From assembly GCA_964019425.1 (NCBI GenBank), contig OZ025791.1, positions 1,426,001 to 1,490,000 on the forward strand: a DNA stretch of 64,000 bases. The letters are read 5' to 3'. A program made the translations under genes and the position numbers. The notes beneath the pieces were generated by a model. The model was not told the origin of the DNA. It searched no databases and saw only the letters and a program-made list of their open reading frames with translations. Source of the stretch: Flectonema sp. DT1601 (Eukaryota). Of this stretch, positions 19,436 to 64,000 are shown piece by piece; the first letter of the stretch is position 1, and each line of letters begins with the position of its first letter.

Positions 19436-20992
19436 ATGACTGGAGCGACTAACGGAGTTGCGCCTCACGAGGCTCCTCCAACCACCACCATAATTGATAA
19501 GGAGTTGGATGAATTCCTTGACAAGTCATGGAACCTTTTAAAGAAACATTGGGAAGAAAACTCTGACAGTGAGAAGAAGGTTTTAGACATCGTAAAACCA
19601 GAAGTAATTCAGAGTGCTGTTAGTGTTGGTTTGGATGGATGTGAAGTTGGATACGATGAAATCTTCACAGCCCTGGAGGGAGTATTGAAGTACAGTGTCC
19701 GCACATCTCACCCAAGATTCATGAACATGCTTTACGGTAATACCGACCTGATGGGAATACTTGGAGAGGTAGTCGCAACCTTTTGCAACACCAATATCCA
19801 CACATACGAAGTATCTCCAGTCTTCACTCTTATGGAACATGAGCTTATGAAAGTTCTTTGTGAATACGTTGGCTACGAGAACGGTGATGGTGTCTTCGCT
19901 CCGGGTGGTTCAATGTGCAACATGTACGGAATGCTCTTAGCAAGAAACAAGGCATGCCCAGATATTAAATTTTATGGGTTTCAAGGTAAGACATTAGTAG
20001 CTTTTACTTCCGCTGAATGTCATTACAGCATTCACAAGGGAGCCAACCTTACAGGAATTGGTATTAAGAATGTCATCCCAGTGAAGTGTAATGAAATTGG
20101 ACAGATGATTCCAGAAGAACTCGAAAAGGAAATCGAAGCAGCGATCGCAGCCGGTAAAACACCATTCTTCTGTAACAGTACTGCTGGAACTACTGTAAAG
20201 GGATCTTTTGATGAGTTTCCGAAGATCGCAGCGATCTGTAAGAAGCACAACATTTGGATGCACGTCGACGCCGCTTGGGGAGGCTCAGTCGTAATGTCTT
20301 CCAAGAGAAAGTACCTAGTGGACGGTATGAACCTCGCTGATTCTATCACATGGGACCCTCACAAGGGAATGGGTGTTCCAATCCAATGCAGTGTCATCCT
20401 CACTAAGAGAAAGGGTGAGCTCGCAGCATGCAATGAATACAAAGCAGAATATCTATTCAAGGACGCTAACTTAGAAAAGATCGTCGCTCGTGGAGCTGGC
20501 AGCAAAGAAGCTGAAAACGCCGCTGCGGAACTGGCTGAAAAGAAATGGGACTTGGGAGACAAATCTCTGCAATGCGGAAGACACGTTGACGCGTTAAAAC
20601 TTTGGATGATGTTGAAGAAACATGGAAAGCAATATTTCAGTGACCGTGTTGAGAATGGTTTCCGTAACAGAGACTACATGATGAAGAAGATGGCTGAACA
20701 ACCAGAAGCCTTTAAATTAGTATCGGATCCGATGTACTTAAACCTTTGCTTTTGGTACATTCCTCCTTCTTGCAGAAAGTTGCCAGAAGGAGTTGAACGC
20801 AAGCAGAAGATCGACACTGCAGTGCAATCCATCCGCCGTTCAATCTGTGAAGAAGGAAAAGTGTACATCAACTACCAGCCTCAGGGGGCGTTACCAAACT
20901 TCTTCCGACCAATTTTCAACTCGTCGAGCACGTCAACGGCCGACATTGACCTCCTCCTCGAGAGGTTGCAGTTCTTTGGAAACGAATTATAA
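19436..20992 (+). CDS. Group II PLP-dependent decarboxylase (glutamate / cysteine-sulfinate decarboxylase-like), intronless
   Basis: HPRFMN, TYEVSPVFTLME, APGGSMCN, CHYSIHK, TAGTTVKGSFD, WMHVDAAWGG, PLP lysine in ADSITWDPHK, QCGRHVDALKLW. Confidence 0.9.
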   Translation: MTGATNGVAPHEAPPTTTIIDKELDEFLDKSWNLLKKHWEENSDSEKKVLDIVKPEVIQSAVSVGLDGCEVGYDEIFTALEGVLKYSVRTSHPRFMNMLYGNTDLMGILGEVVATFCNTNIHTYEVSPVFTLMEHELMKVLCEYVGYENGDGVFAPGGSMCNMYGMLLARNKACPDIKFYGFQGKTLVAFTSAECHYSIHKGANLTGIGIKNVIPVKCNEIGQMIPEELEKEIEAAIAAGKTPFFCNSTAGTTVKGSFDEFPKIAAICKKHNIWMHVDAAWGGSVVMSSKRKYLVDGMNLADSITWDPHKGMGVPIQCSVILTKRKGELAACNEYKAEYLFKDANLEKIVARGAGSKEAENAAAELAEKKWDLGDKSLQCGRHVDALKLWMMLKKHGKQYFSDRVENGFRNRDYMMKKMAEQPEAFKLVSDPMYLNLCFWYIPPSCRKLPEGVERKQKIDTAVQSIRRSICEEGKVYINYQPQGALPNFFRPIFNSSSTSTADIDLLLERLQFFGNEL

Positions 20993-55485: not shown

Positions 55486-56062
55486 GTCAATCGCAGAGTG
55501 TATACCTACACTAACATTACCTTTAGTCACTGTATCTCAGAACTAATGTTAAATTATCGTTATGTTGTCTATGATACAAAACATTTGTATTTTACGTACA
55601 AACTCGAACAGTTAACCCCCCTTTTTTCCCCCTTTTTTTCCCCTTTTTTTTCCCCCTTTTTTGTTCTGCTTGCCCCTTTTTTAATTTTGGAGCGGCATGA
55701 CCGAAGACAATCTTCTTTTCCCTCTTTTATTTCCAATCCCGTCGCCCCCGGGGATTTTAAGCAAGTAAATTGTAGGTGAAACCTACACTCTGCCGTATTA
55801 CATTATACCCTGGTTTTGGTTTCCCAGGGCTCACGATTAATTCAAAATTGAATAACTCGATTCCGTACTGCACTGAATGACAACAGAAAAAGAGATGTGT
55901 ATGCAGCTAAGTTAGAAACATTTATTATAATGTAAAGTATTTACGTCAATCGCAGAGTGTAAACCTACCTTTAGTCACTGTATCTCAGAACTAATGTTAA
56001 ATTATCGTTATGTTGTCTATGATACAAAACATTTGTATTTTACGTACAAACTCGAACAGTTA
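55486..56062. repeat. ~120-bp direct repeat (55486-55614 and 55945-56062) upstream of the Penelope-like ORF
   Basis: gtcaatcgcagagtgta...ctttagtcactgtatctcagaac...aaactcgaacagtta occurs twice; the copies differ mainly by an ~11-bp indel. Confidence 0.9.
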
Positions 56063-56135
56063 GCCCGTGACAGCTGGGGGGAGTGGAGTGTAGCGAGGGA
56101 ATGGCACTTTGCCACTTACCGGCTGTTGACCGTAT

Positions 56136-57942
56136 ATGCGGGTTATCACGTTTTCTTTTTGTTTTAGGTTTTTTGTTAGTAGTGAGATGTGCTACGTTTA
56201 TTTATTTCACAACGTGTTTCGCCATCTTGAACTACTTTTAATACAGTTTTCGTATCATCAAATACCAGCATATACGGCTATTGACAAAGAGCCGCCCCCC
56301 CTTCCTGGTGCGTTATATTGATGACTTCCTTTGCTGGGGGCATGAGCCTCCACCCCCAAGCATCTACAAGATGGACTACAAAGACACTACGATTAGTGAA
56401 GACCACGTAGTCTTTTTGGGAGCAAGAATCAGAATTGAAACAAAGGAAAAGAGAAAGTTTATCAGGTTATCTATAAGCCGAAAGGATTGGTCTTTTCGCC
56501 CTTTGCAATATGTACATAGTAATTCAACTATGCCGGTGTCTATACCGAAAGGAGTGGTTAAAGGTGCTATGTTTAGAGCTGCAATGATTTGTAATAATTT
56601 ACCTGATCTTTTTGTTGAATTTGAATTTATACTTTATAGAATGTGGAAAAGAGGTTTTAAGAAACAAGACGTAGCATTTGCTTTTCGTGAATTCTGCGAT
56701 GAGTTTTATAAAGCCTACGATTCCACATATAAGAGATTATTTTCTTTAGTTCATGTTGTCTTTGGTAAATTAAACAACCCTCACTCTTACCATTTTCCAA
56801 AAGAAAGACAGTTTATTGTTTACCCGCCTAAAGCCGTAGTGTTGATTCCAGAAGAACCAATTGTTCAAGAAGGAAAAGTGGATTACTTTACAATTGACCA
56901 CACGATATGGTATATGGAAGAAGTTGGTCTTTACCCTGAAGACGTGAACCGTTTTGGTAATTGTTTCTTTGAAGCAGTATCGAAACAAATCTTTTACTTC
57001 TTTGATGCAGCGACGCTGCGTGAATTCACCAGTGCTGAGTTAGTAGAGTATAGTGATAAATATAAAAACTTTGTACTCGGTAATTACGACGAATATGCAC
57101 TTGGAATGGGTTTTGATGGTGTGTGGGCAGACCATGCAGCCATACAAGCCTTATCAAATGTATTGGGTGTTAGTTTTTTCTTCCTAAGTATGGACCCTTA
57201 TGAGCAAAAAGACTCCGCTTACTTTGTCGCTCCCGACGCACGGTCTACTTTTTTACTTGTCAGGGGGTTCATCATACTCGGGCACCATGCAAATGTTCCA
57301 TCTGAGCACTTTTTCCCAATACTAGGGCCATACGATTGGTCAGTAATCAATGATTGGTGTATAGAGTATACTGAGGTCATTCTCAATGGCCTGTTTAATT
57401 TGGTTACCTGTTCTGGCTTTACTGATGTGGAGAGTGAAAACTTACCTGACGAAGCCGGGGTACTCTTTGATAAATTGCGTGAAGGAGGTTTAGAAATCAT
57501 ATTACCTTTATTTGTTTTAAACGAAAAGGACATAACGAGTAGATTCTTATCGAAAAGTATCGTCAATGAAACAGATTCTAAATCCTGCAAGGTGCTCTCT
57601 CCAATGAAAGTACATACCGAGTTAGAACAAAAAGGTGTAACCACCACTTGCCCACAAGGTCACGATCTTGAAATAGTTCTCATTAATAAACCAGTTTTTT
57701 GTGATTTATGTGATTCAAATTATTTCTTTGGACAAATATTTGAATGTCGTCTCCCTTGTAAAGGTGAGAGTTTAACATGTGATTGGAATGTTTGCTTGAA
57801 TTGCGTTGGAATATACTTTTGTTGTGGATGTGGCATGCGTACGACGAAAGCAGGCACATGGTTTGCGGGAAGTCGAGGTTTGCAAATCCATCAGTTGACT
57901 TGTGAACCTTTCCTGCTTTTGAGTCAAACCAACCATAACTAA
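56136..57942 (+). mobile_element. 5'-truncated or degenerate Penelope-like retroelement ORF: RT C-terminal half + OTU-like cysteine protease + Cys/His zinc fingers
   Basis: FLVRYIDDFL (RT motif C), VVFLG, and a PLE-type thumb (YVHSNS...KGVVKGAMFRAAMICN...F...LYRMWKRGF). Then OTU-like GNCFFEAVS...LRE...WADHAAIQALS...EHF, followed by CPQGH..CDLC..C..C..CLNC and CCGC...HQLTC. Possible frameshift in the C-run at ~56295-56301. Confidence 0.7.
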
Positions 57943-59097
57943 GTTTATGGGATGGGCTTTGCTGGTAGTGTGCTACGAACCAGCGTATTCTTGTCATGTT
58001 ATTTATCTTTTCTTTTTTTCTCACCCCTGTAACTACCCACCCAGATAATTTTTATTGGTTACCCATTAATGCATTAATGTTTTCAAGCTGTAACGACCTG
58101 CAGGGCATGGGATGCTCAACCTGTAGTGCGTGGTCCCCGGGTCAATTTGACTTGACAGCATTTCTTTCTCTGGTAGTTTATTTAAAGCATGCGATTTTGT
58201 GTGGACAGAATCCAGTTATAATGATTCATGTCTAATTTGTTGCGTGTTAACCTTGATTTATTTATCCAAGTCCCCCCTTCCTGGTGTTCATCTTTTTCTA
58301 TGGTTAATTTTCAAGACAATATAATGTATTAATTAAGTACTCATGAGTTTTATAAAAGCTGTTACGGTAACATAATTGATAATGGATTGATTGAAAGCCA
58401 ATAACACAAACGGTCAAGGATGTGATGACTTGGGAAATGATAAAAGTAATCTTTCTGGAACTTCTGCTCAGTACATGCAAATGCATCTTGACAGGCGGGA
58501 ACCCTTCAGGCAGTACTGCGCTCTTGATAATTCAAAGTAGCCTTAAAAAAGCTCTCATACCTGCATGAGTTAGATACCCTGATAACCCGGTCAGAAACAG
58601 GAGTGTCGCTTGCGACCAGGCTGTCTGTAACTCGCAGGTGTCTTGACTTTGAAATTTGGTTGGAATGACGTGTAAGAGGACAACAGTTCTCTGTAAGGTG
58701 ACTCAGCCCTGCACACATACCGTTCTTTGCATGCACTCAGTAAATTTTTCAGAGGCTGATAACTATCAGGACCTGAAGAACAACCCAACCTTTCCGTGAG
58801 TACTTGTCTTTGCCTAATCTCGTCAAGCCAGATGAACATCATACAAACGTTCCTAATCATAAACGTTTTGCTTTCTCTCTAGGCTTTTACTCTTATTCTC
58901 AATCTCTAAGATGCCCGGAAACATAGTTGAAACTCAACCTGCTGCCACTGAAACTCAGCCTGCCTCAGCTTTGGCTGACAAGACCTAGTATTGAGGGAAC
59001 CTTTCAATCCTTTGATGCACTTCGCGAGGGCAACCCTCGCTTCTTGTTCTTCGGGAAGGGGGTTTAAGACAAGCCACATAGTGGGGAAAAGGGTGAC

Positions 59098-59565
59098 ATG
59101 GATGCTTCTGGGCGAGTTCCCAGTTGCCTTTGCCATCACGGGAAGGCCAAGGGGAAGTGTTCAGCCCACATGGAACGCAACATAAAGGTTGCCTTCAAAA
59201 GTAAGGAAGCCGTGTCGAAGTTTAAGAAACTTCGAATGACATCATCGGAAGAGAGGTACGAGGAAGTGTTCGACACCCTCGATCCTGAATTTCAGGAGTA
59301 CCTGAAGGGGAAAGACCCAACATCATGGGCAACGTGCCAGATAAGAGCACGGAATTATGGACATACAACATCCAACCTGACGGAGAGCTTTAACGCCTCC
59401 TTATCAAAGATAAGGGCGAAAAGTATCCTCGGCCTGTTAAACGGGTTACTAAGCCAGCTTTCTCGTTGGTTCTATGAACGGCACATGGAAGATACAGGCA
59501 ACGACGACGGAGTACTAGAGCACGTGCATCTAAGCCTCACGTTACAGTGTTATTCCTGTAAGTAA
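59098..59565 (+). pseudogene. Mutator-like (MULE) transposase fragment
   Basis: CSAHMERN (CxxH) and YGHTTSNLTESFNASL motifs of the MULE DDE domain; the N-terminal catalytic part and TIRs are not seen. Confidence 0.7.
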
Positions 59566-59742
59566 GTTAGGGGAGGTATATGAAGGTATTCCTTGCAAAA
59601 ACATTCAAACTAATTTTGTATTGTAATCCCCACAGCTTCAGTAATTAAGGGAGGGCTGCAATTCGAAGATGACTAAATATTACTTCCGAAAAGTTTAATC
59701 ATCATTAATCATAAAAGTATATCAGTCATTCCTTCAAAAAAG

Positions 59743-59814
59743 CACCCACCGTGGGGATCGAACCCACGACCATTGGATTAAAGGTCCAACGCTCTACCAC
59801 TGAGCTAGGTGGGC
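59743..59814 (-). tRNA. tRNA-Lys(UUU) with non-canonical C33
   Basis: Minus strand GCCCACC TA GCTC AGTGGTA GAGC G TTGGA CCTTTAA TCCAA TGGTC GTGGG TTCGATC CCCAC GGTGGGT G folds as a full cloverleaf with intact A and B boxes. Confidence 0.9.
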
Positions 59815-59836
59815 CACGAAAACTACAGTTTTCACG

Positions 59837-59878
59837 AAAGCTACAGTTTCTGTACTTTATTGTTTCTGTACTTTATTG
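59837..59878 (+). other. Two nested spliced-leader relics at the 5' end of the LINE
   Basis: aaagctacagtttctgtactttattg (59837-59862) followed immediately by tttctgtactttattg (59863-59878). Matches the conserved 3' end of the euglenozoan SL (ACAGTTTCTGTACT(A/T)TATTG; diplonemid ...AAAGCTACAG..., recalled from memory). Confidence 0.85.
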
Positions 59879-59909
59879 TGTGTGATTTACAAAAAAAAAA
59901 AAACTAAAA

Positions 59910-61274
59910 ATGTCCGGAACACAAGAATCGATGGTCGTGCAGCAACAAGAGCAAGCACAGCAATCAATGATGCAACAGCAGCAAGCACAGCAATTAATGG
60001 CACAGCAACAGCAGGCACAACACTTAATGATGCAACAACAGCAGCCGCAACAGCCAACACAAAGCCAGCCGGTACAACAACAAGCGCAGAACAATTCCAA
60101 CAATTGCTTTTTACATGGCAACTGGACGCTTGAGACTTTAAGTCAGTCGCAAACTCACCTTCCCAACAATGTCCCACCAATCTCCCCCTTTTCGTTTATG
60201 AGCTCACCAATGATAGCGTTTAAACAGTATCTCAGAATAACAAATCTGTATTTTAAAACAATAAACATTTTAAGTTTAAAAGAAATGCACTTCACAGTTT
60301 CAAAAGACAATGTTGTAAACGTTTTTTCTTGTTTATTGGAAATCAAAAAAGAATGTGCAGCTGATTTCTTAGAAATATCCGGCCAACACGGCATTTTCTT
60401 TTCCGAACACAAAAGCACTCAACACCTCTCCTCCTACTACACAATTGTGTGGACCCCTGACACACCTTACACCCAGCTTAAAAAGATAGCAATCGATCTC
60501 AATAAAGACCCAAAAAACAAAGGAGCCCTCGGGCTCACAATGTACCAAGGAAGAAGCCTTGGGATACGAATTAAAAAAGAATCAGAAACAAACTTTCGTT
60601 CAAATTTTGGAGTAAAATGTCCGACTTATTTCGAGATAAGCGGCATAAGCAAAGAGAACGCAACGTCATTTGACGTTGAATTTTTTTTTGATTTAATGAA
60701 AAAAAAAATTAAATACTGTTATAAAAAAAAAAGGGAAGAGTCACATGTTGTGAGCTCGTACGAGAATCTGCAGTCTTGCGGATCAGTAATCGTTAAAAAA
60801 ATAACTCAACCCTCAAAAGATGAAAGAAGAATTGAAAAGAACTCAATAGAAACGAAAACAGACCAAACTGAAAAAAAAGATATTAACGAAAAAGGAAAAG
60901 GAAAAGGAAAAGGGAAAGGGAAAAAAGGAAAGAAAGGAACTAAGGGAGAGAGCGGTAAAGGAAAAAAAACTGTTTTGTCATCACCGTCAACCTCAGTAAC
61001 CCCGTCAATAGAACAAACGGACATTTTAAACCAGCTAAAATTATTGTTAGATGCACAAACAAAGCATCTAACAACAAAGATCATTGGCACTTTTCTAGCC
61101 GATGATCCGAAAAAGCAAGCAGAAGCTTGGGATGCGGAAATAAACCCGCAAGAAAAAGAAGGTTTTCTACAAGGATCGATGGACGATGACATCGATCTTG
61201 TGAAACAGAAGCTGGACAAAGAAAACGATGGTGATGACAACACAAAAAGAAAAAAAGAAGAACCTCCGAATTGA
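59910..61274 (+). CDS. LINE ORF1 (454 aa): poly-Q N-terminus, basic GK-repeat, no evident zinc knuckle
   Basis: ORF directly upstream of and in frame with the APE-RT ORF; GKGKGKGKGKKGKKG basic tract. Confidence 0.8.
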   Translation: MSGTQESMVVQQQEQAQQSMMQQQQAQQLMAQQQQAQHLMMQQQQPQQPTQSQPVQQQAQNNSNNCFLHGNWTLETLSQSQTHLPNNVPPISPFSFMSSPMIAFKQYLRITNLYFKTINILSLKEMHFTVSKDNVVNVFSCLLEIKKECAADFLEISGQHGIFFSEHKSTQHLSSYYTIVWTPDTPYTQLKKIAIDLNKDPKNKGALGLTMYQGRSLGIRIKKESETNFRSNFGVKCPTYFEISGISKENATSFDVEFFFDLMKKKIKYCYKKKREESHVVSSYENLQSCGSVIVKKITQPSKDERRIEKNSIETKTDQTEKKDINEKGKGKGKGKGKKGKKGTKGESGKGKKTVLSSPSTSVTPSIEQTDILNQLKLLLDAQTKHLTTKIIGTFLADDPKKQAEAWDAEINPQEKEGFLQGSMDDDIDLVKQKLDKENDGDDNTKRKKEEPPN

Positions 61275-64000
61275 CTGTTTCCTTATAATTTATATCTTTT
61301 TTATTTCTCGAACCTTCTTTTGTGTGGAGACATCCACCCGAACCCCGGTCCACAAAAAAAGCAAAAAAACAGTGAGCTGAGAATTGTATCTTTTAATGTT
61401 TGTGGTCTCAAGTCGAAATCCGACGAAATAACTTTTTTTTTACAAAATATAAAACCTGACCTATTCATGGTTCAGGAAACATTGTTAAAGGATAACGACG
61501 AAACCATTAATTTTAATGGGTACAAGTGTCTCAGAAGAGACCGGAGAATTCCGGTAAAAAAAAACGCACCCGTCAGAGGTGGTGGATTGGCAATTTTTTA
61601 CAAAAACAGCCTAAGCGTGACAGCATTCGCTGTTGCACAACACAGCCAAGACTGCACTGAAGTCCAGGGCATTTTTGTGTCAAATTCAAAACAAACTGTA
61701 AGGGTATACAACGTGTACAGACCACCGGTAAGCCAATCAACCTCTGATAGGTCCCCCTCTTTTGATATGAATAGTATTTTTCTTTTTAATAAAAATGATA
61801 AAGTAGTTATCGCGGGGGATCTTAACGCAAGGCATCCACTCTGGGACCCGAGAGACGAGTCAAACACAAATGGCCATGAAGTCTCGACTTTTCTAAACAA
61901 TAACCAGTTTGAATGCTGCAACGTTAAGGAAATCCCCACAAGACCAAAATCAAACACTTCTCCTGATGTTGTTCTCCAAAAAAACTGTGATATTGGCAAC
62001 TGGACGACGCTCGAATCTCTATCAAGCGATCATGTACCAATGTATTTTTCTCTTTCTTTTTTTTCGGATTCGATAAACAGAGCGAACGGTGCAACGGTTT
62101 TTTCTTATAATTGGAACAGGGCACTGTGGCCAAACTACAGCTCCCACCTCGAAAGGGTGGCGAAGCGACTTGAAAAGATTCAAGATAACCAGAAATTATC
62201 AATGGAATTCATAAAAGAATTAAAAAATGCGTTACGGATCTTTGTACCAAGGATTTATTTGAAAGGAAAGTCACCAAAGAAGTGGTGGAACACGACGGTT
62301 GCATCTAAGTTTCATGAGTTCAACGAGTCACATTGTGACCAACGGGATGATCTTACAGATCTGTCGCAACAGGGAAAGTCAATTTTTACATCTTTAAAAA
62401 AAGAACTCAAAAAAACAGTCGTTGATGCCAAGAATCAACAGTTTAAAAAAAGCCTTAAAAAAGACAAGTCTATTATTGAAGCTTTTGAAGACATAAGAGG
62501 CCTTGATGGAAGATCAAGACTTAAAGAAATTCGAGAAATCACCTGTGGTGATAAACTTGTTACAGATGATGTGGAAAAAGCATCAATTTTCAATAATCAA
62601 TTTTTACAACGTGTTGGTAACATCAAAGAAAAAACAAAGACAAAGAAAATAGAAACAGACCCTTCTGATTTTACACCATTTACACAACATGAACTTAGAA
62701 TCCAATTGAGAGGAATGGCTCTGGAAAAGAATTCACCAGATGGCGTTCAAGGTATTCTTCTTAACCATTTGGGACCTAGAATGCTAAACATTTTACTTAA
62801 GATTTTTAACAATTCGTGGAAACATTCTGTTGTCCCGAGTGATTGGAAAGACACACACTGGATCCCTGTTTTAAAAAAAGGAAAACCCCCAAACCTCCCC
62901 TCTTCATATAGAATGATCTCTCTCACCCCTTTTATTGCGAAATTGATGGAAAGAATGGTGAAGGAACGTCTTACGTATTTTATGCAATCACCGAATGAAA
63001 AGAAAACTGACGGTATTGGTTTCAACCAAACTTCTTATCGGAAAACGCGTTCTTGCCGGGAAAACATCCTATATGTTACGGACAGACTTAGATTTCTTAA
63101 ACACCAAAAAAAGTCAGCGGCCCTTGTTCTTCTTGATATCGAAAAAGCTTTTGATAGTGTGAACCATGATCTTCTCCTTCAAAGGATGGTAGATCTTGGA
63201 ATACCAAAACATTTTATAGCCTGGATTCAGGCCTTTCTTAAAAAACGAAGAGCAGCGGTTGTTGTTAATAATGAAAAAGGTTCTTACCACAATGTTTATT
63301 CTGGCGTTCCACAAGGAACAGTTTTGTCGGCTCTACTTTTTACTCTGTATATTGAAAAAGTCGCAGAAAGACTAGATATTACGGTTGCTAAGTATGCGGA
63401 TGATATTGCTTTTGTAGTTGATGATGAAGGGAAAGGTTTTACTTATCATTTGGCAAAAACGAAATATTTCTTTAATGAGATTGAAAAGGATCTAAACGAA
63501 TTAAAATTAAAAGTAAGTTATGAGCCTGACAAAACAAAACTTGTGTATTATCCCTACTCCCCAAATTCCCCACTACAAACACCTTTCACTTTTACTTCAA
63601 ATTTAACAAAAAATATTGTTCCATGTGTTGATAGCGCCAAGCTTCTTGGGGTGATCCTTGATAACAAGCTCGATTGGAAACAGCATATCTCGTATATTTG
63701 TAGAAGAGTTAATCTTCGCTTAAGGTATCTGAAGCTTGTCGCATCAAAAGCATGGGGACAGTGTACTGCAACTTTGCGTGAGGTGTATGATTTGTATATT
63801 CGACCTGTCATAACAAACTCGTGTGAAGCTTTTTATCCTGAAGTTAGGTATAAAAAGATTCACATGGACAGGCTTCTCTCTTTACACCTTAGGGGTGCGT
63901 GCTATGTCTTAGGTGCCTTACCACCAACAAGGGAAACAAGAGATAAGATCTTTTTTGAGGCACAACAACAAAGTATCAACACCCATTTGAGACTTGAAAC
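61275..64000 (+). CDS. LINE ORF2: 2A-like peptide + APE endonuclease + reverse transcriptase (3'-truncated by window; absent from the ORF track)
   Basis: APE motifs SFNVCGL, MVQET, RGGGLA, NVYRPP, AGDLNARHPLW, SPDV and SDHVP. RT motifs SYRMISLT, LLDIEKAFDSVNH, GVPQGTVLS, KYADDI and KLLGVILD. All lie in the same frame as ORF1. Confidence 0.9.
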   Translation, partial: MFPYNLYLFYFSNLLLCGDIHPNPGPQKKQKNSELRIVSFNVCGLKSKSDEITFFLQNIKPDLFMVQETLLKDNDETINFNGYKCLRRDRRIPVKKNAPVRGGGLAIFYKNSLSVTAFAVAQHSQDCTEVQGIFVSNSKQTVRVYNVYRPPVSQSTSDRSPSFDMNSIFLFNKNDKVVIAGDLNARHPLWDPRDESNTNGHEVSTFLNNNQFECCNVKEIPTRPKSNTSPDVVLQKNCDIGNWTTLESLSSDHVPMYFSLSFFSDSINRANGATVFSYNWNRALWPNYSSHLERVAKRLEKIQDNQKLSMEFIKELKNALRIFVPRIYLKGKSPKKWWNTTVASKFHEFNESHCDQRDDLTDLSQQGKSIFTSLKKELKKTVVDAKNQQFKKSLKKDKSIIEAFEDIRGLDGRSRLKEIREITCGDKLVTDDVEKASIFNNQFLQRVGNIKEKTKTKKIETDPSDFTPFTQHELRIQLRGMALEKNSPDGVQGILLNHLGPRMLNILLKIFNNSWKHSVVPSDWKDTHWIPVLKKGKPPNLPSSYRMISLTPFIAKLMERMVKERLTYFMQSPNEKKTDGIGFNQTSYRKTRSCRENILYVTDRLRFLKHQKKSAALVLLDIEKAFDSVNHDLLLQRMVDLGIPKHFIAWIQAFLKKRRAAVVVNNEKGSYHNVYSGVPQGTVLSALLFTLYIEKVAERLDITVAKYADDIAFVVDDEGKGFTYHLAKTKYFFNEIEKDLNELKLKVSYEPDKTKLVYYPYSPNSPLQTPFTFTSNLTKNIVPCVDSAKLLGVILDNKLDWKQHISYICRRVNLRLRYLKLVASKAWGQCTATLREVYDLYIRPVITNSCEAFYPEVRYKKIHMDRLLSLHLRGACYVLGALPPTRETRDKIFFEAQQQSINTHLRLE
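61311..61352 (+). other. 2A-like (StopGo) motif NLLLCGDIHPNPG-P
   Basis: aac ctt ctt ttg tgt gga gac atc cac ccg aac ccc ggt cca, against the consensus D(V/I)ExNPG|P (His at the Glu position). Confidence 0.75.

Follow-up and report, generated by a model that had tools for sequence, protein, structure and literature searches.

No LINE can do without a way to restore its 5' end in full. Can the spliced leader (SL) of the host serve as that end? The question is raised by a LINE of the euglenozoan Flectonema sp. DT1601, which lies in the stretch of DNA analysed here (64 kb, called the window throughout) and is preceded by two nested pieces of an SL. The euglenozoan LINEs studied so far, L1Tc and ingi, use an internal promoter and avoid trans-splicing, and unspliced RNA is taken as general for trypanosomatid LINEs by the authors of that work (PMC1874656). 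If true, an SL that serves as the element's 5' end would solve the problem in another way: trans-splicing would take off nothing but flank, and the captured AG would be used again. Nested units would then count rounds of retrotransposition, and SL recycling, described for dinoflagellate genes, would also exist in Euglenozoa, carried there by the retroelements themselves.

A leader repeated in front of ORF1

Two SL units lie directly one behind the other on the + strand. The first, a 26-nt piece at 59837-59862 reading AAAGCTACAGTTTCTGTACTTTATTG, is a 5'-truncated SL that spans nt 14-39. The second, a 16-nt unit at 59863-59878 reading TTTCTGTACTTTATTG, spans SL nt 24-39 and starts at the base that follows the CAG of the SL; it would be the older of the two relics, the 26-nt piece the younger. 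An element-specific, AG-free 5' UTR of 31 nt follows (59879-59909), and the ATG of ORF1 stands at 59910, 31 nt past the end of the second unit. The internal AGs of the younger relic lie at 59839-59840 and 59845-59846, and the bases after the two units are TT and TG, with no GT donor at either. The preliminary description of this locus had placed the units at these coordinates, with the second copy starting after the internal AG, no GT donors and 31 nt to the ATG, and all of this is as it had said.

It had also recognised the 3' end of a euglenozoan SL, and the identity extends to the full 26 nt: the relic is the same, base for base, as nt 14-39 of 'Euglenozoa 14', a 39-nt SL (PMC3795323, whose available part states no species for it), and as these nucleotides of the SL RNA gene at locus L022, which has a GT donor and lies on a contig of a prokaryote genome bin. 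Perfect matches to the 16-mer occur exactly twice in the 64-kb window, both at the relic, and one other match carries three mismatches, which is the level of chance; these counts rule out a chance origin of the repeat.

Could the relic have belonged to the insertion site, for example as the remnant of another retroposed mRNA, with the LINE landing just behind it? The LINE 5' end was read at the DNA level from one copy, that of the window, and mobile-element debris (MULE and RT-OTU fragments) is abundant nearby, as this reading would have it. On the other side, the relic lies 31 nt from an intact ORF1 and in the same orientation, SL pieces longer than 12 nt are found nowhere else in the 64 kb, and the same arrangement stands before other reverse transcriptase (RT) ORFs, as described below. 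We consider this origin highly improbable.

A second concern is the repeat itself. A single trans-splicing event would suffice if the 16-nt unit were a tandem duplication, made at integration or by slippage, whose register with the AG is coincidental. The sequence gives this some room: owing to a 2-nt microhomology the repeat can be written in three equivalent registers (59846-59879), and the one that starts after the AG is just one of them. Yet only 3 of the 1,122 possible tandem duplications of 8-40 nt within the SL piece and UTR yield the observed product. Further evidence on both sides comes from the junction and from other loci, to which we return below.

The element and its family

ORF1 (59910-61274, +) encodes 454 aa without a Pfam family and ends in a single TGA, behind which ORF2 continues in the same frame (61275-63998, +) until it runs off the window. 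ORF2 holds an AP endonuclease and an RT by Pfam, and P0075, a full-length member of its cluster, has an RNase H in addition. Judged by these predicted domains, the element belongs to the APE-type non-LTR retrotransposons that carry an RNase H. Its ORF2 falls into a cluster of 18; of the 15 members listed, 14 could be aligned with the window protein and are 96.6-100% identical to it, which marks the family as young. The ORF1 protein is identical on three contigs and has three near-identical variants; on these sequence counts the family is multicopy yet low-copy.

The closest named relatives of ORF2 come from Flectonema neradi (35%) and Diplonema papillatum (27%). In a PDB sequence search all hits were RTs of the L1, R2 or group II type, and the clade was not placed by them. 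ORF1 matched nothing in the Atlas and only itself in a word-index search, and its single-sequence fold, at a pLDDT of 35.6, is too poor to use. Its relatives are F. neradi transcripts and a second, unnamed family; a profile built from these relatives recognises two LINE proteins of D. papillatum in their N-terminal part (E 4e-14), the only 2 of 69 targets to score so strongly.

The stretch from ORF1's lone TGA to the start of ORF2 (61272-61469) deserves a closer look. ORF2 follows the stop in frame (TGA CTG), and its first ATG, at 61467, already lies inside the endonuclease domain. Between the two, before that domain, sits a 2A-like motif, GDIHPNPGP (61326-61352, +), and similar motifs are found in 20 of 67 homologues. 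The D. papillatum relatives carry an ORF1-like domain and ORF2 in one frame. ORF2 is likely expressed by read-through or from a non-ATG start. 2A variants with an E-to-H exchange have very low activity (PMC3708506). The same stretch is pyrimidine-rich and has a terminal AG, and could act as an alternative trans-splice acceptor.

The long ORFs of the window, host and LINE alike, all lie on the + strand. Among them, a glutamate decarboxylase-like protein (19436-20992) falls into one 90% cluster with a protein of the F. neradi transcriptome. Together with the named ORF2 relatives, this identifies the host as a diplonemid.

A tRNA gene at the junction

Two features next to the relic had escaped the preliminary description: a tRNA gene 22 nt away and a near-duplication of 18 nt at the junction. 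The tRNA-Lys(TTT) gene occupies 59742-59814 on the - strand (ARAGORN; 69.2 bits in Rfam), with its 5' end toward the 5' end of the LINE, and the two stand head-to-head with 22 nt from the gene to the SL relic. A T6 run lies directly behind the gene (A6 at 59736-59741 on the + strand). It is the sole tRNA gene of the window, in which Rfam detects nothing else.

The junction tandem occupies these 22 nt. Its first copy (59815-59832, +) consists of CACG and the SL-like AAAACTACAGTTT, its first base adjoining the tRNA 5' end; the second (59833-59850, +) overlaps the start of the SL relic and is identical to the first at 16 of 18 positions. Outside low-complexity sequence, the window has no near-perfect tandem of period 14-20 apart from this 18-mer and the 16-mer. 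We infer that the 18-mer is a duplication made at integration, which would place the true junction about 4 nt from the tRNA gene, a spacing like the 2-6 bp known for the dictyostelid element Dp_NLTR-A (PMC5006619). As a separate observation, an SL variant of viral origin (L010:4982-5040) reads AAAACTACAG, the same as copy 1 of this tandem, and copy 1 might derive from a variant SL instead of from a copying error.

Is the tRNA gene a chance neighbour? This is unlikely, since the 64 kb hold one tRNA gene and the 280 Mb of D. papillatum contain 211 (PMC10161547). The adjacency is seen in 1 of 1 readable copies of the window LINE, a single copy, and in 0 of the 7 nested loci of other families described next.

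Nested leaders in metagenomic contigs

A scan of metagenome contigs with a pattern that required the nested SL register matched at seven loci (L001-L007), with several variants of the SL. Because the pattern demanded this register, the seven loci do not test it against other duplications, and a single trans-splicing event followed by duplication can draw on that selection. The pattern demanded neither an RT ORF downstream nor a third unit.

In three of the seven, in euglenozoan-type DNA, an RT ORF of another lineage than the window LINE follows within about 100 nt (L002, L004 and L006; RVT_1 E-values 1.5e-15, 2.5e-16 and 1.8e-29). From their motifs we read these as restriction-endonuclease-type elements; of the three, L006 alone could be aligned with the ORF2 of the window, with 26% identity in the RT. 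No RT was recognised downstream of the other four. Two of their contigs end 125 nt (L001) and 487 nt (L007) past the nested SL. The remaining two, L003 and L005, have a common 5' segment followed by long ORFs without a family, which are possibly ORF1 of an unknown retroelement; a homologue search with the L005 ORF returned itself alone. Rfam gave no match over L001-L007, and the nested pattern was found at no locus in viral contigs or prokaryote genome contigs.

Six of the seven loci have two units and one, L007, has three; none has more. The third unit of L007 begins after the upstream AG of the SL, and units thus start after both SL AGs, which is predicted by splicing and not by slippage. 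This argues against a single splicing event with later duplication. The last SL unit is followed by TGTGTGA both in the window and at L007, and by TG at L002 and at L025 and L026, two loci of the scan described next.

Leader tails without nesting

What do genomic SL tails look like when nesting is not required? A scan for single SL tails gave six loci on three viral contigs and 15 loci on nine contigs of prokaryote genome bins; one of the seven overlapping loci L015-L021 was read, as was every other locus. Three of the nine bin contigs carry SL RNA genes with GT donors (L021, L022 and L028), and two are AT-rich with a full or near-full SL before ORFs (L014, L027). The remaining four (L023-L026) hold donor-less relics in GC-rich DNA, and all four lie in a retroelement context. 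The L026 relic is followed by an RT ORF, and that of L025 by an ORF that matches the C-terminal end of an RT protein at 84% identity across 101 aa. The L024 relic lies downstream of an RT ORF whose protein matches the L025 ORF, its own downstream ORF being without a family, and the L023 relic sits after the A-tail of an RT element and before an ORF with a 2A-like motif.

None of these four relics is nested. L024 and L025 have junction duplications of another geometry, which take in downstream UTR. In this small but unbiased sample, SL relics in genomic DNA accompany retroelements and need not be nested, and plain duplication is seen as well. Together with the 18-nt near-duplication that adjoins the window relic, L024 and L025 indicate that duplication without splicing does happen at such ends, and all of them lend weight to a single splicing event with duplication. 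The nested units, on the other hand, contain no UTR sequence. Weighing this with the count of possible duplications and the units of L007, we regard such an origin of the second unit as unlikely.

A degenerate antisense tRNA-Val copy ending in CCA is found at L025 (L025:4827-4902), 84 nt before the duplicated SL relic. By eye, it is joined to an apparent tyrosine-recombinase ORF; the tRNA-like match interrupts what appears to be another element and was left out of the support for tRNA targeting.

How far do the relics reach toward the SL 5' end? Cap 4 blocks reverse transcriptase. This cap covers the first four SL nucleotides (PMC4783070). Ten non-viral relic loci are informative, counting the window and omitting L003 and L005, which begin at contig ends. 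Measured against SL references of other species, the SL match starts at about nt 5-8 in six of them and at nt 11-14 in four. It never starts at nt 1 in these ten, unlike in the three SL RNA gene loci, all of which reach it. Such starts fit reverse transcription of a capped mRNA.

Three of the relics (L001, L002, L023) start at SL nt 11-12, presumably near the CRE cut site, and might, in their first unit, owe this start to CRE-like insertion into SL genes. For the window this would mean that the SL pieces are of DNA origin: an SL RNA gene among clustered tRNA genes would have received the LINE or served as the source of its flank. CRE-clade elements do insert in SL RNA genes (PMC12278014), and at L022 an SL RNA gene whose SL ends in the 26 nt of the window relic lies inside a cluster of 10 tRNA genes. 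What the window shows is of another kind. Neither unit has a GT donor or an SL intron, SL nt 1-13 are absent, the tRNA gene is just 22 nt off and the endonuclease is of the AP type, not the restriction-like type of CRE; nor would a target duplication be expected to make a unit of nt 24-39 alone. We give this origin very little credence.

Full or near-full euglenozoan SLs without GT donors also stand before ORFs in AT-rich, giant-virus-like DNA, at eight loci: L008, L009, L011 and L013 on one 238-kb viral contig, and L010, L012, L014 and L027. A motif AAAA(A/T)TGA lies 26-27 nt before SL nt 1 in five of the eight. Five AT-rich loci have an SL of the L022 type, and a VLTF3-like gene is near L009.

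Two probable rounds of trans-splicing and retrotransposition

We put the probability at roughly 80% that the nested relic stems from two rounds of SL trans-splicing and retrotransposition, with the second leader likely added at the AG of the first. An ancestral RNA would have been given an SL and reverse-transcribed far enough to place the SL's AG in DNA. That copy would have been transcribed from outside, within a polycistronic unit of the host, a mode of transcription suggested by the location of all long ORFs on one strand. The relic AG would then have accepted a new SL, and of the old leader nt 24-39 would have remained. The twice-tagged RNA would have served as the template of the window copy, which would have been truncated to SL nt 14 when it inserted a short way upstream of the tRNA gene. 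In this way the SL would supply the RNA with a cap, allow its translation and define a 5' end at which nothing of the element is lost, and would replace an internal promoter or a ribozyme.

The region between relic and ORF1 is compatible with such a role. No AG occurs in the 63 nt from the relic AG (59845-59846) to the ORF1 ATG, and therefore the relic supplies the nearest acceptors. The host ORFs of the window, inspected by eye, have YAG sites shortly 5' of their ATGs.

The number of units probably does not increase without limit, as truncation past the AG, an acceptor context that is poor at most sites and a switch to the other AG of the SL would each stop it or set it back; splicing at the upstream AG would leave a unit that still holds an AG. 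The recycling proposed in the preliminary description is supported in part, by the SL tail before the LINE, the AG register and the recurrence before RT elements. Its steady growth is not supported: against a gain of 16 nt per cycle stand the two units of six and three units of one of the seven nested loci, and the four unbiased relics, none of them nested. Pyrimidines make up 48% (0.48) of the 25 nt preceding the relic AG, with no pyrimidine tract, and an antisense tRNA gene lies upstream, from which the window copy itself may splice poorly. The idea that the element could obtain its 5' end from any read-through transcript is accordingly doubtful for this copy.

A broader picture can be drawn tentatively, and we would call it possible sooner than probable: several unrelated non-LTR lineages of free-living euglenozoans might do without a 5' promoter or ribozyme and multiply by way of normal SL-capped mRNAs, with the inherited AG of the host SL as sole acceptor, the window family in addition aiming a few bases upstream of tRNA genes.

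Relation to known systems

As judged by the features compared, the window element works like dinoflagellate recycling and is a member of neither Ingi nor CRE. In dinoflagellates, relict SLs of recycled mRNAs have led to a recycling model for genes (PMC3229502, citing Slamovits and Keeling). There as here, tandem SL tails that start after an internal AG lie behind the youngest SL in genomic DNA, and the likeness in geometry that had been noted for this locus is confirmed by the AG register described in the available part of that paper. The present case differs in its carrier, which is an autonomous euglenozoan LINE and no retrogene of the host; in its units, which show no decay and are few in number; and in its SL, the 39-nt euglenozoan leader being unrelated to that of dinoflagellates.

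Ingi and L1Tc of trypanosomatids share with the window element the APE-RT-RNase H architecture and a 2A-like motif before the endonuclease (PMC1874656, PMC12278014, PMC3708506). Their 5' hallmark is Pr77, an internal promoter of 77 nt at which their RNAs start; these RNAs are unspliced (PMC1874656), and an ORF1 is lacking. With its ORF1 of 454 aa, separate where Ingi has a single ORF, its 31-nt UTR and its SL-derived 5' end, the window element represents the opposite solution; judged from that UTR and from Rfam, Pr77 is not among its features. The CRE clade (SLACS, CZAR, CRE1, CRE2) resembles it in having SL sequence next to the 5' end. The endonuclease of these elements, however, is restriction-like, and SL RNA genes are their insertion sites (PMC12278014), whereas the window element is of the APE type and shows no SL gene structure.

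Insertion upstream of tRNA genes is known from dictyostelids, at distances of 2-6 bp for Dp_NLTR-A, about 50 bp for TRE5 and 13-33 bp for the LTR element DGLT-A (PMC5006619). The window LINE is similar in having its 5' end 4-22 bp upstream of a tRNA gene, as known from one copy. Dp_NLTR-A and the window LINE both bear an RNase H, a likeness by description only.

Transposon RNAs use host trans-splicing in other organisms too. In Hydra the SL is found on about 30% of the Iso-Seq reads of transposable elements (PMC12220107), and in C. elegans a subgenomic RNA of Cer1 is SL1-spliced while its full-length RNA is not trans-spliced (PMC3315495). In contrast to the window, the available accounts describe the SL of these elements on RNA only, not in element DNA nor reused as an acceptor. 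The element types described for D. papillatum (PMC10161547) and Bodo saltans, in the portions available, do not include the feature, nor do SL relics at euglenozoan LINE 5' ends appear in the titles and abstract openings of the literature searched; the D. papillatum repeat supplement, outside that scope, may bear on the point.

Other mobile elements in the window

The neighbourhood of the LINE holds remains of further elements. A MULE transposase fragment at 59068-59565 belongs to a 23-member cluster whose longer members match Pfam MULE. Further upstream, a 5'-truncated ORF with an RT and an OTU protease (56242-57942) belongs to a 12-member cluster, in which the longest member among those listed has 1,084 aa and weak matches to RVT_1 and OTU. 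We take the RT motifs of this ORF to be Penelope-like. Upstream of it lies a direct repeat of 101 nt (55518-55618 and 55966-56066).
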